From sequence record PP359530.1: a stretch of 52,783 bases of DNA. One strand, written 5' to 3'. The translations under genes were made by a program, and so were the position numbers. The stretch is from Acinetobacter phage vB_AbaSI_1. The notes beneath the pieces were generated by a model, which worked only from the letters and a program-made list of their open reading frames with translations, was not told the DNA's origin and made no database searches. Numbering within the stretch: position 1 is the first letter of the stretch; every line of letters starts with the position of its first letter. Of this stretch, positions 2,956-6,280 are shown in pieces.

Positions 2956-3369
2956 ATGAATGCAAAAGTTAATAACAAGACAATGGACTGGTCTAAACGT
3001 TCTGCTCATCAATGGTTGGAACAATATGGTCTATGGGTAAGATCAACAAAATCTAAAGTTTCTGCTAATCCTCTAGCATGTTTAATTGACCAAAATGACA
3101 CAACTAGAATTAGATCAAGTAAGGTCTCTATGCCATGCGAAATTGAAGATTATGAGGCAGTTGAAGTAAGCAAACTCTTGGCTAAAATGCATAACGATAA
3201 TAGGGAATTTCTACAAGAAAGAGCTTGGTTTTTAATACTTTATTATGAAAATAATTGGTCGTATTTAACAATTGCCAATGTACATAGATGTAGTAAAGCA
3301 AAAGTACGTGCTGAGATTGATAAAGGTTTGGCTTATTTGGATGGTAAAATAGAGGTATTGCAATCTTGA
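2956..3369 (+). CDS. putative late-gene antiterminator (Q-like) regulator
   Basis: 137-aa basic protein. It is the last gene of the replication/regulatory module and is followed directly by a consensus promoter plus terminator unit. The family call comes from context and weak recall. Confidence 0.35.
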   Translation: MNAKVNNKTMDWSKRSAHQWLEQYGLWVRSTKSKVSANPLACLIDQNDTTRIRSSKVSMPCEIEDYEAVEVSKLLAKMHNDNREFLQERAWFLILYYENNWSYLTIANVHRCSKAKVRAEIDKGLAYLDGKIEVLQS

Positions 3370-3394
3370 CAGTGCAGCACACTTGGTTTAGATT
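3366..3394 (+). promoter_or_regulatory. sigma70-like promoter TTGACA-17-TAGATT overlapping the Q-like stop codon (candidate late promoter, PR'-like)
   Basis: TTGACA at 3366-3371, 17-nt spacer, TAGATT at 3389-3394. Confidence 0.4.
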
Positions 3395-3440
3395 TGTGAT
3401 ATGGTGGGACGAAGTTATAAGCGTTGCACCAAATTGTTTT

Positions 3441-3468
3441 AAAAGCTCGCCAAATGGTGAGCTTTTTT
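3441..3468 (+). terminator. rho-independent terminator about 45-70 nt downstream of the candidate late promoter (tR'-like)
   Basis: aaaagctcgccaaatggtgagctttttt: a hairpin with one mismatch followed by a T6 run. Confidence 0.5.
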
Positions 3469-3519
3469 GTTCCATGAATTTTAATATAATAAGTTTTTTA
3501 TAAATCCGAATTAAATAAA

Positions 3520-4203
3520 ATGTCAGAAACTAATCCTTCTAAAAGTGAGAAAACAAAGCTTATTTTTATAATATCTTGTTTCATTGTATTAACGGGGGTA
3601 GCTTACAGAATTCTTTATTTAGGACAAATACAGGGATCAGAATTCGTTATATTAGTTATCGCCTCTATGTTCATTTGTTTGACAGGTTATTTTTTAAAAG
3701 AAATTCAGGAATTCTCCATTGGAGGCAATCTTTTTAAATTAAGAGATATCGGGAACAAGTCAGAAAAGTTACTTCATGATATGCAAATTGAATATTATAA
3801 AATGCGTATCGATATGGCTTTTACACCTACTGGATTTTTCGGTGGAGTTGGAAATTCAATTTTTCAAAGTAAAATTGAATTCTACAATGTTATTAGAGAA
3901 ATTAAAGATGTGGGGCTGTTGAAAAACCCTACCTTAAGACAAAAGATTGAAATACAACTTAGAAAATCCCTTCAACAACAACTTGAGAATGTTCACTTAA
4001 TAGGAAATGTGCTTAATGAAAATCCTTTAAATGGCAAAGTTGATCCTTTAGAAATTAGAGGGTTAATCTCAGAAGAAATTATAAGAAAAAATATAAAAGA
4101 CAATGATTTGTATAGAGATGAAACAACTGCTAAAAATACAATTTTAATGAGAATTGAAATTTATGAGAACTTATTAAAAGCTTGTAATTGGCTTGAAGAG
4201 TAA
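3520..4203 (+). CDS. membrane protein (2 N-terminal TM helices plus a roughly 150-aa cytoplasmic coiled-coil-like domain); accessory gene of unknown function
   Basis: Low-GC segment. N-terminus LIFIISCFIVLTGVAYRILYL / FVILVIASMFICLTGYFL. No recognisable family. Confidence 0.5.
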   Translation: MSETNPSKSEKTKLIFIISCFIVLTGVAYRILYLGQIQGSEFVILVIASMFICLTGYFLKEIQEFSIGGNLFKLRDIGNKSEKLLHDMQIEYYKMRIDMAFTPTGFFGGVGNSIFQSKIEFYNVIREIKDVGLLKNPTLRQKIEIQLRKSLQQQLENVHLIGNVLNENPLNGKVDPLEIRGLISEEIIRKNIKDNDLYRDETTAKNTILMRIEIYENLLKACNWLEE

Positions 4204-4272
4204 TTTTTTAACCTCCTTCGACCGGTTCTCTTTTGTGCTATAGTCCAGACTAATTAAAAACTGGTAAGTAAA

Positions 4273-4491
4273 ATGAATATCTGTGTTGGTGGTGAACTTG
4301 ATGGGCAAAAGATAGAAAAAGAAGGTAGATTGCTTAAAGCTTCTGATATCGACCTATCTTTTAAAACTGAGTACTACAAGCAAGTTTTTAACCGCGACAA
4401 CATCAATTATCATTTTTGGCTTCCAATAGGATCCAACTTGCACGAAATGTCTGAGCGAGTTTTGGATATTTTGAGAGCACCTAAAAAATAA
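4273..4491 (+). CDS. hypothetical protein (72 aa)
   Basis: ORF in the low-GC accessory segment, followed by two terminators. Confidence 0.4.
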   Translation: MNICVGGELDGQKIEKEGRLLKASDIDLSFKTEYYKQVFNRDNINYHFWLPIGSNLHEMSERVLDILRAPKK

Positions 4492-4571
4492 GCATAAAGT
4501 ATATTGTAAATACATATTCTAATTTGTATGATGTATCACAAATACTGCGCTGAAAGTTTTTGTTTTTGTGA

Positions 4572-4600
4572 CCCGTTTCTTTTTTAGAAGCGGGTTTTTT
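4572..4600 (+). terminator. rho-independent terminator
   Basis: cccgtttct-ttttt-agaagcggg hairpin followed by tttttt. Confidence 0.5.
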
Positions 4601-4667
4601 GATTTTAAAACCCCACTCGCTTAGGACGCTTTGCGAGTTTTCTTGCCGGACGGATTACGGCGCAAAT

Positions 4668-4708
4668 GGCCCCGCTACATACTAGTTATTGGCGGGGCTT
4701 TTTATTTT
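4668..4708 (+). terminator. rho-independent terminator
   Basis: ggccccgc ... gcggggc stem followed by tttttatttt. Confidence 0.5.
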
Positions 4709-4845
4709 ATTAATTTGATGATTTAGTTCTCGATAGTAAATAATTTACTATTGAGAACTAAGTATTTGAAAAATAAAATAAATTTTATAATTAACCTATG
4801 AATTAGTATAATAAATAAACATTAACTAATTTAATTGGTGAAAAT

Positions 4846-5124
4846 ATGCCATTCGAAAGAAAGACAGGGTATAAATTGAAGTTTATCAATGAAAATGACT
4901 TTGAAATTATCTGCCTAGACTGTAACGACACCAATACTGTGAGACAACAACTTAAAGATGCTGGATTTGTTACAGATATTAATTCAGTAGATGAAAAGGA
5001 TGAATACCATCTTCAAAAGATTATTGGAGTAACAAGTAGCAAGGAAGACTTGATTGCATTACTAGATAATTGGTTTGATTTGTTAAACAGTATGGAGGTT
5101 ACAGCCTACAAAGATTTTGATTAA
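4846..5124 (+). CDS. hypothetical protein (92 aa)
   Basis: ORF with RBS GGTGAAAA. Preceded by an extended -10 (tagTATAAT at about 4803-4812) and followed by a terminator. Confidence 0.45.
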   Translation: MPFERKTGYKLKFINENDFEIICLDCNDTNTVRQQLKDAGFVTDINSVDEKDEYHLQKIIGVTSSKEDLIALLDNWFDLLNSMEVTAYKDFD

Positions 5125-5139
5125 AAAATGATAGTAATA

Positions 5140-5167
5140 AAAACCACTTTTGCAGTGGTTTTTTTAT
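5140..5167 (+). terminator. rho-independent terminator
   Basis: aaaaccacttttgcagtggttttttta. Confidence 0.6.
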
Positions 5168-5176
5168 GGGTGAAAT

Positions 5177-5647
5177 ATGGATGATAAAGAATACTTCTGG
5201 CTTACAAGAAAAAAAGAACCTAAAACAAAACCCAAAAGTAGACCATTGCCTAAAGCTACTCAAAAGTACTTAGAAGCTGAAGAAGAATTTACACATGCTT
5301 TAGATAATCTGGAAATTAAATACGAAAAGAAATTCCAGTTTAAATCAACAAAGCATTGGCGTTTTGATTTTCATTTAATTGAACATCGTATTTTAGTTGA
5401 AATTGCTGGCGGTCCTTGGTCTGGTGGTCGAAAGGGTAAGCTGGCAACAAAGGCGTGGAGTATGGACCGTTACGATGTTGCTGAATCAATGGGATATACC
5501 GTTGTTCGGTTAGAGGCAGTACCAAGATTTAAGATTAATGAATCTGGTCCATTGCAGATCCAAGCTCATTTCGCTAGCCAATGGCTTAAAAATTTAAAGA
5601 GGCAAATATTTAATGGATCATCAGATCAGACCATTTCCTCCAACTGA
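5177..5647 (+). CDS. restriction-endonuclease-like fold protein (DUF559/Vsr-like arrangement) with a basic N-terminus
   Basis: WRFDFHLIEHRILVEIAGG...DRYDVAESMGYTVVRLE resembles the D...E...DR...G(W/Y)xVxR layout of DUF559-type nucleases. The match is weak and the AGG in place of DG is atypical. Confidence 0.3.
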   Translation: MDDKEYFWLTRKKEPKTKPKSRPLPKATQKYLEAEEEFTHALDNLEIKYEKKFQFKSTKHWRFDFHLIEHRILVEIAGGPWSGGRKGKLATKAWSMDRYDVAESMGYTVVRLEAVPRFKINESGPLQIQAHFASQWLKNLKRQIFNGSSDQTISSN

Positions 5648-6257
5648 TTTTATAGACCAAGCAGATGAAGAGGAAGCGATACGCATAGTACCTGCGCCTG
5701 ATTTAAAAAACTGGGTAGTTGCTAATTACTTAACTATTGGTGGACCTCTTTATAACCCCGATCATGATCACATAGCTGAGCTGCTTCACGATAATGAAGA
5801 ATTTTTAGCATTCGCGTGGGCCTCTTCTGCATATAAAAGCAAGCAAGCTATGGTGTTGGGCCAGTGCGAAAAAGTCATGTTCAATGTTGGTGGATGGCGT
5901 AAAGCTCGACAAGAGCAACAGATGCGAGACTGGTTCGGCTTTGTGCCAACATACTTAATAACTGTCGACGCTTCTTTCTGTGAGCGTGCAAACGATACAG
6001 AGTTCTGTTACTTACTTGAACATGAGCTTTACCACATTGGAGTGATGAGAGACGAGGACGGAGAAATTGTTTATAGCGATAGTTCTGGTCTTCCTAAGCA
6101 CTATCTTGCAGGTCATGACGTTGAAGAGTTTATTGGCGTAGTTAAACGTTATGGACCAAGCAAAAATGTTAAGCGACTTATTGAAGTCGCAAAAAATCCG
6201 CCGTTTGTTTCGAATCTTGATATTTCAAAATGCTGCGGAAACTGTGTAATCAATTGA
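5613..6257 (+). CDS. HExxH protein (putative zinc metallopeptidase-like) with C-terminal CCGNC
   Basis: LLEHELYHIG motif and C-terminal ISKCCGNCVIN. RBS AAGAGG upstream; 35-nt overlap with the upstream ORF. Confidence 0.4.
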   Translation: MDHQIRPFPPTDFIDQADEEEAIRIVPAPDLKNWVVANYLTIGGPLYNPDHDHIAELLHDNEEFLAFAWASSAYKSKQAMVLGQCEKVMFNVGGWRKARQEQQMRDWFGFVPTYLITVDASFCERANDTEFCYLLEHELYHIGVMRDEDGEIVYSDSSGLPKHYLAGHDVEEFIGVVKRYGPSKNVKRLIEVAKNPPFVSNLDISKCCGNCVIN

Positions 6258-6280
6258 GCCAAATGGCTCTTTTTTTTTGC
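6257..6280 (+). terminator. rho-independent terminator before the packaging operon
   Basis: gagccaaatggctc hairpin followed by a T9 run. Confidence 0.55.

Follow-up and report, generated by a model that had tools for sequence, protein, structure and literature searches.

What kind of genes separate the Q-type antiterminator gene from the DNA packaging genes of Acinetobacter phage vB_AbaSI_1? The whole 52,783-nt stretch of its sequence record (PP359530.1) is called the window below, and five open reading frames (ORFs), designated A to E, lie in the region concerned. A first-pass annotation had regarded all five as accessory genes at a site typical of abortive-infection, exclusion or toxin genes, and had suggested that D and E could form a two-gene module. 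The present analysis leads to a different view. Instead of a toxin or defence cluster of five genes, the region is an ordinary hotspot of accessory genes. It is probably the promoter-proximal part of a Q-antiterminated late operon in a Vieuvirus-like temperate Acinetobacter phage, and comprises a cargo hotspot (3366 to about 5176) and conserved packaging-block genes (5177-6257). Gene content, synteny, variability and family assignments were read directly from the comparisons below; the pattern of transcription and every biochemical role are predictions and are worded accordingly.

The window was compared with 80 related Acinetobacter viral loci fetched through E (labels of the form L0xx denote loci) and with a second set of 80 loci from outside Acinetobacter, taken from Enterobacterales and Pseudomonas species genomes. 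Since the Acinetobacter loci are closely related and were chosen via E, the presence of E in them is not independent evidence; the adjacency of D and of DUF2280 to E is. Denominators of 75, 77 and 79 are the numbers of eligible loci. Contigs deposited under the name 'Acinetobacter phage MD-2021a' are 99.9% identical to the region, and long stretches of it are 88-97% identical to temperate Acinetobacter siphophages of the Vieuvirus type (among them B1251, AM106, Gln and the Acba series). Locally, the genes follow one another in the order HNH protein, DUF1064 nuclease, Q, ORFs A-E, DUF2280, large terminase and portal.

A variable interval between Q and D

All five ORFs had been placed correctly in the first-pass annotation. 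Each matches a PHROG family with an expect value (E-value) between 7e-38 and 2.5e-104 (Table 1), as real genes would; these strong matches, together with conserved homologs, ruled out the possibility that A-E are random ORFs. The impression that the 3.4-5.1 kb stretch is AT-richer than its flanks was also borne out. The GC content of 3366-5176 is 0.309 versus 0.380 for the window (standard deviation 0.031), which is within the lowest 3% of segments of equal size. Low GC is restricted to this part, the value for D-E (5177-6280) being an ordinary 0.397; gene by gene it is 0.289 for A, 0.356 for B, 0.323 for C, 0.369 for D and 0.419 for E.

The same division appeared when synteny in related phages was checked: A, B and C are variable, and D and E are constant. 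Among the 80 Acinetobacter loci A had no close relative and only two weak matches (26% and 30% identity). Clustering placed B in 32/80 loci, at varying distances from D, and C was present in six of the 80. An exchange was seen in L010 and L038, which are 94-98% identical to the window on both sides of the affected segment: window positions 3502-4269 are replaced there by 354 bp encoding a 57-aa acidic ORF. The cassette exchanged consists of A plus 66 bp, and its swap points (3501/3502 and 4269/4270) fall directly after the leader terminator and at the start codon of B. Other cargo also occupies the Q-to-D interval. Seven loci have a D12-class Dam methylase (PF02086) there, and four loci, as well as B1251, a Lar-like restriction-alleviation protein (PF14354); a lipoprotein (phrog_2459), other proteins with transmembrane (TM) and helical parts, and many small uncharacterised ORFs were found as well.

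A, B and C therefore show the patchy presence between conserved flanks by which morons are recognised, and D (74/75) and E do not; the deviating base composition of morons is also seen in A, B and C. These three genes are variable, swappable cargo just downstream of Q and its promoter/terminator unit, in the pattern of a moron hotspot, and the stretch from 3366 to about 5176 would act as a recombination hotspot for cargo cassettes. Thus the description of the region as an accessory-gene cluster holds for A, B and C, and it does not hold for D and E, which are near-universal and of ordinary GC.

No support was obtained for a role in abortive infection, exclusion or toxicity. None of the five proteins matched a PADLOC defence model (the sole match, with an E-value of 0.04, is noise), and A, B and C gave no match in Pfam, NCBIfam or PADLOC scans. 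An Rfam scan of 3000-6800 returned chance-level matches only (Trp leader, 22 bits vs 41), and ARAGORN found no tRNA.

Upstream of the cargo, a Q-family gene is followed by a putative promoter and then by a predicted intrinsic terminator ahead of the late genes, the order that characterises lambdoid Q antitermination, and we infer the function of this unit from the lambdoid model. The unit, about 104 bp long, is 90% kept in L029 (window 3365-3467 = L029:1636-1738), where about 730 bp (L029:900-1635) have been inserted between Q and the unit. This insert suggests that cargo can also be inserted upstream of the late promoter.

ORFs D and E and the packaging block

ORF E scored far above the threshold for PF18894 (Table 1). 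The HExxH and CCGNC motifs that had been noticed earlier were located at residues 137-141 (HELYH) and 207-211; besides the C-terminal cysteine motif, the protein has the further motif GHDVEEF at 167-173. PF18894 corresponds to phrog_513, with homologs in Pseudomonas phage JBD44, Pectobacterium phage ZF40, Salmonella phage Oslo and phages of Klebsiella, Vibrio and Burkholderia. Across six genera, of which those other than Acinetobacter are represented by Pseudomonas, Pectobacterium, Klebsiella, Burkholderia and Vibrio phages, the family is 39-47% identical, and H137, E138 and H141 of the HExxH motif, H168/D169 and C211 are invariant, as are GHDVxEF and further motifs. A Pfam scan of nine diverse E homologs with E-values up to 10 detected PF18894 and no other zincin family, and sequence and profile searches of PDB with E gave no match. 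The intact catalytic motif argues for E as an active metallohydrolase.

The position of E is fixed relative to the gene that follows. DUF2280, the putative small terminase gene (terS), comes directly after E in 76/77 Acinetobacter loci; in the loci from Enterobacterales and Pseudomonas genomes it starts 34-49 bp after E in 79 cases out of 79, and every phage record with coordinates that was compared, in six genera, has the same order. The phage database contains 143 records with E and 142 non-Salinibacter records with DUF2280, and the counts per genus are nearly equal. The large terminases beside the pair differ: at least four types were distinguished, and many large terminases were not recognised by the queries used. 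A 67-bp query spanning the E-terS hairpin (6250-6316) was found in 53/80 loci. In the 80 loci outside Acinetobacter no conserved gene was found upstream of E. E itself has normal GC, and no promoter of its own was found. Such constancy of place speaks for a function of E that is tied to the small terminase. E would accordingly be a zincin-type metallohydrolase with an intact HExxH site, inherited together with DUF2280 in many genera whichever large terminase is present. Most likely it acts late, in concert with the small terminase, when packaging of DNA begins or the head is assembled.

The pairing of D with E is of another kind. D abuts E with an overlap of 32-35 nt (35 nt in the window) in 74/75 Acinetobacter loci, and a D-like gene was next to E in 0/80 loci outside this genus. 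The proposed D-E module is thus a lineage-specific adjacency, and the E-DUF2280 pair is the deeper and broader one: the constant partner of E, on the gene orders compared, is the putative DUF2280 small terminase and not D. The conserved association with core phage genes that had been named as evidence against a cargo role was found for both D and E. Literature searches located no functional study of PF18894 or DUF2280, PF18894 being named in one paper, as an unexplained accessory gene, and DUF2280 also in one; the strict pairing reported here is the one modestly new point.

The nuclease fold suggested for D is backed by homology. Alignment of D with a true DUF559 paralog gave a probability of 98.7% in hhalign (E-value 2.7e-16); this 134-aa phage paralog, c1, matches the D profile and itself passes the DUF559 threshold (31.3 bits). 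D is below the Pfam gathering cut-off for DUF559 (13.2 bits vs 20.6; the type-2 allele scored 16 bits). Annotated DUF559 phage genes were found with D by tblastn at 4e-9, and D64, H66, R71 and E75 are invariant in 29 D homologs. Sequence and profile searches of PDB with D gave no credible match. We therefore consider D a probable DUF559/Vsr-like nuclease that has become fixed in Acinetobacter phages. No promoter-like site was found upstream of D-E; the terminator after C leaves only 13 bp to the start codon of D, so there is no room for a promoter. Two allele classes of D exist, with identities below 60% in 37 loci and of at least 75% in 39, and the adjacent E, the better conserved of the two genes, stays 81.5-100% identical. 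As D alleles switch beside a constant E, a mosaic breakpoint must lie at about 5622. The possibility that D is a sporadic homing endonuclease was ruled out by its presence in 74/75 loci.

Several other observations concern these genes. The DUF559 paralog c1 (about 30/80 loci, e.g. L021:2285-2689; in B1251, L008:1573-1878) adjoins an alternative Q-like gene about 32% identical to Q of the window. Its slot corresponds to that of DUF1064 in the window, and the two nuclease families appear to alternate there. In many relatives (L026, L029, L036-L038 and others; e.g. L026:5695-5988) DUF2280 is chimeric and another type of large terminase lies downstream. Only the N-terminal 62% of the chimeric protein matches that of the window (about 66% identity), the C-terminal part switching with the large terminase, which fits a DNA-binding N-terminal domain and a swappable C-terminus that would bind the large terminase. 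In Burkholderia phage vB_PL1 a homing-type gene with NUMOD4 and HNH_3 lies between E and the genome end (L006:4088-4639), terS being at the start of the record; this was the sole case seen of a gene between E and DUF2280. GenBank labels a number of PF18894 homologs (those of B1251, R3177, JBD44, ZF40, Oslo, ENT47670 and others; phrog_513) as 'transposase', with the note 'Transposase and inactivated derivatives'. The label is almost certainly wrong, and nothing found here supports it. Finally, the E homolog encoded by L123, a 684-bp low-coverage contig in a Myxococcus xanthus assembly, shares 78% identity with the protein of Pectobacterium phage ZF40, and the contig is probably contamination.

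Table 1. Coordinates of genes and predicted elements from Q to the large terminase gene
Feature	Position	Strand	Basis
Q-type antiterminator gene	2956..3369	+	PF06530 37 bits (cut-off 26); phrog_79 1.4e-30
Putative Q-dependent late promoter, TTGACA-17-TAGATT	3366-3394	+	promoter scan 10/12
Leader terminator, hairpin 3441-3466 plus U6, to 3472	within unit 3366..3472	+	leader fold -28.4 kcal/mol, z = -4.6
ORF A, 227 aa, two N-terminal TM helices and helical C-terminal domain	3520..4203	+	phrog_8083 7e-98
Possible extended -10 promoter for B, TGcTATAGT	4236-4244	+	read from sequence only
ORF B, 72-aa cargo protein	4273..4491	+	phrog_1523 7e-38
Terminator t1 after B, 11-bp stem and U-run	4570..4602 (hairpin 4570-4596)	+	fold z = -3.4; 17/80 loci
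Conserved non-coding element, 64 bp, with terminator t2 (hairpin 4667-4699 plus U5)	4645..4708	+	-25.6 kcal/mol, z = -3.2
Near-perfect palindrome	4721..4763 (arms 4723-4741 and 4743-4761)	.	19-nt arms, 95% complementary
Predicted sigma-70-type promoter for C, TTTATA-17-TATAAT	4784..4812	+	scan 10/12; TTGATA-17-TATAAT in relatives (C-locus alignment)
ORF C, 92-aa acidic (pI 4.4) cargo protein	4846..5124	+	phrog_36671 4e-64
Terminator after C, 10-bp perfect stem plus U7	5139..5170 (hairpin 5139-5163)	+	fold analysis
ORF D, 156-aa basic protein, diverged DUF559/Vsr-like (PD-(D/E)xK) nuclease fold	5177..5647	+	phrog_503 3e-60
ORF E, 214-aa PF18894 zincin-like protein	5613..6257	+	PF18894 122.8 bits vs cut-off 23.7, 1.3e-35
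Weak terminator-like hairpin with a 5-bp stem and U9, in the E-terS gap	6256..6278 (hairpin 6256-6269)	+	z = -2.1
DUF2280 protein, putative small terminase	6317..6787	+	PF10045 135 bits; overlaps TerL gene
Large terminase (TerL)	6777..8204		PF17289

Cargo genes and junction elements

ORF A is a rare, orphan membrane cargo protein. The two membrane-spanning helices expected from the first inspection correspond to hydrophobic segments at about residues 11-35 and 36-62, and the AlphaFold model is all-helical (pLDDT 79.5). Foldseek searches with this model against PDB and BFVD gave no match with an E-value below 0.28, and sequence and profile searches of PDB gave no credible one. Its family is a small one, mostly of Acinetobacter origin: clustering at 90% identity gave 11 clusters, all the named ones being from this genus, and profile search collected 143 representatives. 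Conservation is highest in the second TM helix and in the motif KEIQEFSIGGNL that directly follows this helix. In another prophage a 62%-identical relative of A fills the same slot. Because A lies directly behind the Q-dependent leader and has neither promoter nor terminator of its own, the lambdoid model suggests that it is expressed late only; A would probably be made in lytic growth alone, when Q permits read-through by the polymerase. Our best guess at its role is membrane-level exclusion, anti-defence or an effect on lysis timing.

Each ORF had been thought to be closed off by its own terminator. This is so for B, C and E and not for A and D: the sequence 3' of A folds no better than shuffles (z = +1.1), and D, which overlaps E by 35 nt, has no room for a terminator. 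Judged by consensus matches, the cargo genes differ in the signals they possess. C has both a predicted promoter and a predicted terminator; B is followed by two terminators, with only a possible extended -10 promoter ahead of it; A has neither signal. With its own predicted promoter and terminator C is a candidate for a textbook moron, and this near-consensus promoter could allow its expression from the prophage. B and C would both be moron-type units. The 40 bp upstream of B are conserved along with B.

The junctions between the cargo units contain two conserved elements. The 64-bp element that includes terminator t2 was found in 34/80 loci, 214-2991 bp upstream of D, and many Vieuvirus records contain it, at about 97% identity, in intergenic DNA left unannotated, where it lies behind different genes (the Lar-like gene in B1251). 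This distribution marks it as a likely recurring cassette boundary.

The second element is the inverted repeat upstream of C. It had been described as 17 bp long at 4723-4760; the repeat is real and slightly longer, with arms of 19 nt. As RNA it would fold with -24.8 kcal/mol (z = -8.75). It occurs in 16/80 loci at a distance of 65-85 bp from the cargo gene downstream, and these genes are of at least three unrelated kinds: C, an 84-aa ORF and an 86-aa ORF. Its right arm, AATTTACTATTGAGAA, is invariant and contains the -35-like hexamer TTGAGA; the left arm is variable, mostly through A-to-G changes that would keep G-U pairs in plus-strand RNA. In the alignment 92.5% of cells are paired, in few and closely related sequences. 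Pairing at this level is consistent with an RNA hairpin, which might serve as a processing site; alternatively, the invariant right arm with its -35-like hexamer may point to an operator or promoter element bound by protein. No further half-site with up to two mismatches was found in the window. The sole other site resembling it, at 40888-40904 (three mismatches) between the SRAP gene and ORF 40949-41632, is probably due to chance. Both the 64-bp terminator element and the palindrome probably insulate or regulate the cargo units at cassette junctions.

The segment between t1 and t2 deserves a separate remark. Positions 4495-4663 are relatively GC-rich, contain small hairpins and a promoter-like sequence (TTGTAA-17-TATGAT at 4504-4532), and are absent from Gln-type phages, which retain only B and t2. 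A short transcript ending at t1 or t2 could be made here.

Alternative explanations

A number of findings speak against the division into a Q-dependent cargo hotspot and a packaging block in which E works with DUF2280. Promoter-like sites in the region number 17 against a shuffle mean of 14.0 +/- 3.6, such matches being common in AT-rich DNA, and consensus matches are the basis for predicting the late promoter, the read-through and the expression of B and C from the prophage. A, B and C are without detectable functional homologs, which makes an exclusion or anti-defence role for them a guess. Some distant relatives of A, among them one of 34% identity, occupy chromosomal sites outside prophages. 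For E, the AlphaFold model is of low confidence (pLDDT 43.4, shallow alignment). Identity of E among the Acinetobacter loci is 81.5-100% and that of its DUF2280 neighbour 41%-99%, which argues against tight co-evolution within this genus. Finally, 181 Salinibacter phage records have DUF2280 and no detectable E; the one gene upstream of DUF2280 that was scanned had no PF18894 match. It follows that E is not indispensable to every DUF2280 terminase.

The last two findings on E could be explained if E were an anti-defence or host-directed protease, which shields the packaging proteins against sensors of the host or strips host proteins from the DNA, and not a packaging factor. Packaging would then not be strictly E-dependent, as the Salinibacter phages indicate, and high conservation of E while D, DUF2280 and TerL vary suggests a partner outside the phage; the HExxH motif is intact in all genera. 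The conservation of E beside variable neighbours leaves room for such a role. However, the rigid E-DUF2280 spacing is more typical of functionally coupled genes, and E matched no known anti-defence or defence model. We consider this explanation decidedly unlikely and prefer a role of E beside the small terminase. That preferred role can be extended to a more daring proposal: that E and DUF2280 constitute an unrecognised two-component packaging-initiation module with a metal-dependent hydrolase as partner and, separately, that A represents a new family of induction-only membrane effectors. We put it forward tentatively, as rather unlikely in this full form. If it were true, E could process the small terminase, clear proteins from the packaging site or help end formation, and the module would be a portable one, combined with at least four types of large terminase and spread over about 500 species of bacteria.

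The original interpretation, with all five ORFs as accessory genes and the nuclease D and metallopeptidase E as a toxin, abortive-infection or exclusion module, draws on the adjacency and overlap of D and E in Acinetobacter phages, on the terminator-like hairpins that lie on both sides of the pair and on the anti-restriction or methylase cargo carried at this position by other phages. It appears highly improbable. The GC of the pair is ordinary, the space before it is too short for a promoter, PADLOC models matched none of the ORFs, and D alleles are swapped independently of E. Moreover, E is paired with DUF2280 in every lineage tested, D being absent in 80/80 non-Acinetobacter loci, and DUF559 paralogs occur elsewhere without E, for example beside the alternative Q gene. 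Very unlikely, too, is the explanation that A is a holin or lysis-timing protein in the canonical lambdoid slot after Q and the late promoter. A is indeed the first ORF after the leader terminator, phage JBD44 has a holin at the equivalent position, and some distant members of the A family (cluster 6) are named 'phage holin family protein' by NCBI; the two TM segments, with strong conservation of the second one and of the juxtamembrane motif, would also suit a holin. On the other hand, with its 227 aa and a helical soluble domain of about 165 residues A would be an atypical holin, and no Pfam holin family matches A or any of ten A relatives. The endolysin gene is 30 kb away, after the tail genes (34731-35291), near-identical phages (L010 and L038) exist without A, and the distant relatives outside prophages do not suit this function either. 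Hence A is neither a small TM protein next to an endolysin gene nor a match to a holin family, and it is better placed among the cargo.

Comparison with known systems

Morons of lambdoid phages, a concept of Hendrix and Juhala, are exemplified by lambda bor and lom and by the morons of HK97, and in Stx phages the stx genes occupy a cargo slot downstream of Q and PR'-tR'. A, B and C resemble lambdoid morons in being present or absent among close relatives, in their conserved flanks and in their low GC, and C and probably B also in having their own predicted promoter and terminator. The position of A directly behind the Q-dependent leader terminator is that of stxAB. Unlike the genes of these systems, A, B and C are similar to no known conversion, toxin or exclusion protein, and the lysis cassette of this phage group is elsewhere.

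With respect to protein families, E belongs with PF18894, 'Putative phage metallopeptidase', by its score above threshold and its HExxH motif. D has the core motif R-x-D-F ... (I/V)-E-(I/V)-x-G-G of the DUF559/Vsr-like fold (PF04480), but differs from it in having 'AGGPWSGGRKG' in place of the usual 'DG..H' motif, in its score below the Pfam cut-off, in a lysine-rich N-terminal extension and in its fixed place next to E.

In HK97-like cos phages HNH endonuclease genes adjoin the terminase genes. E is comparable as a small gene for a putative metal-dependent hydrolase that lies directly upstream of the small terminase gene and is inherited with it. In contrast to the HNH genes it encodes a predicted zincin-type HExxH protein. 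Both kinds of gene, E and a NUMOD4-HNH gene, precede terS in Burkholderia phage vB_PL1.

Implications and other parts of the window

The results will not surprise a phage genomicist, and their use is in the first place for annotation: D can be named a DUF559-type nuclease, and D and E can be assigned to the late/packaging block instead of to cargo. Vieuvirus prophages are common in clinical A. baumannii, and their Q-to-D interval becomes a defined slot for cargo exchange, in which genes for conversion or anti-defence may sensibly be sought. The invariant PF18894-DUF2280 pairing provides a testable lead on a widespread uncharacterised phage gene.

Outside the region studied, the part of the window downstream of the endolysin gene contains an integrase gene on the minus strand (35625-36542), umuC/umuD-like genes (38244-40036) and a gene for an SRAP peptidase (40183-40818). 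Further downstream, 42004-43161 encodes a second integrase, which has an arm-binding domain, and 44602-45594 a protein with an FRG domain. The stretch 35625-45594 holds the other low-GC tract of the window, with a minimum of 0.295 at about 43151, and may represent a second integrated element or a prophage boundary.

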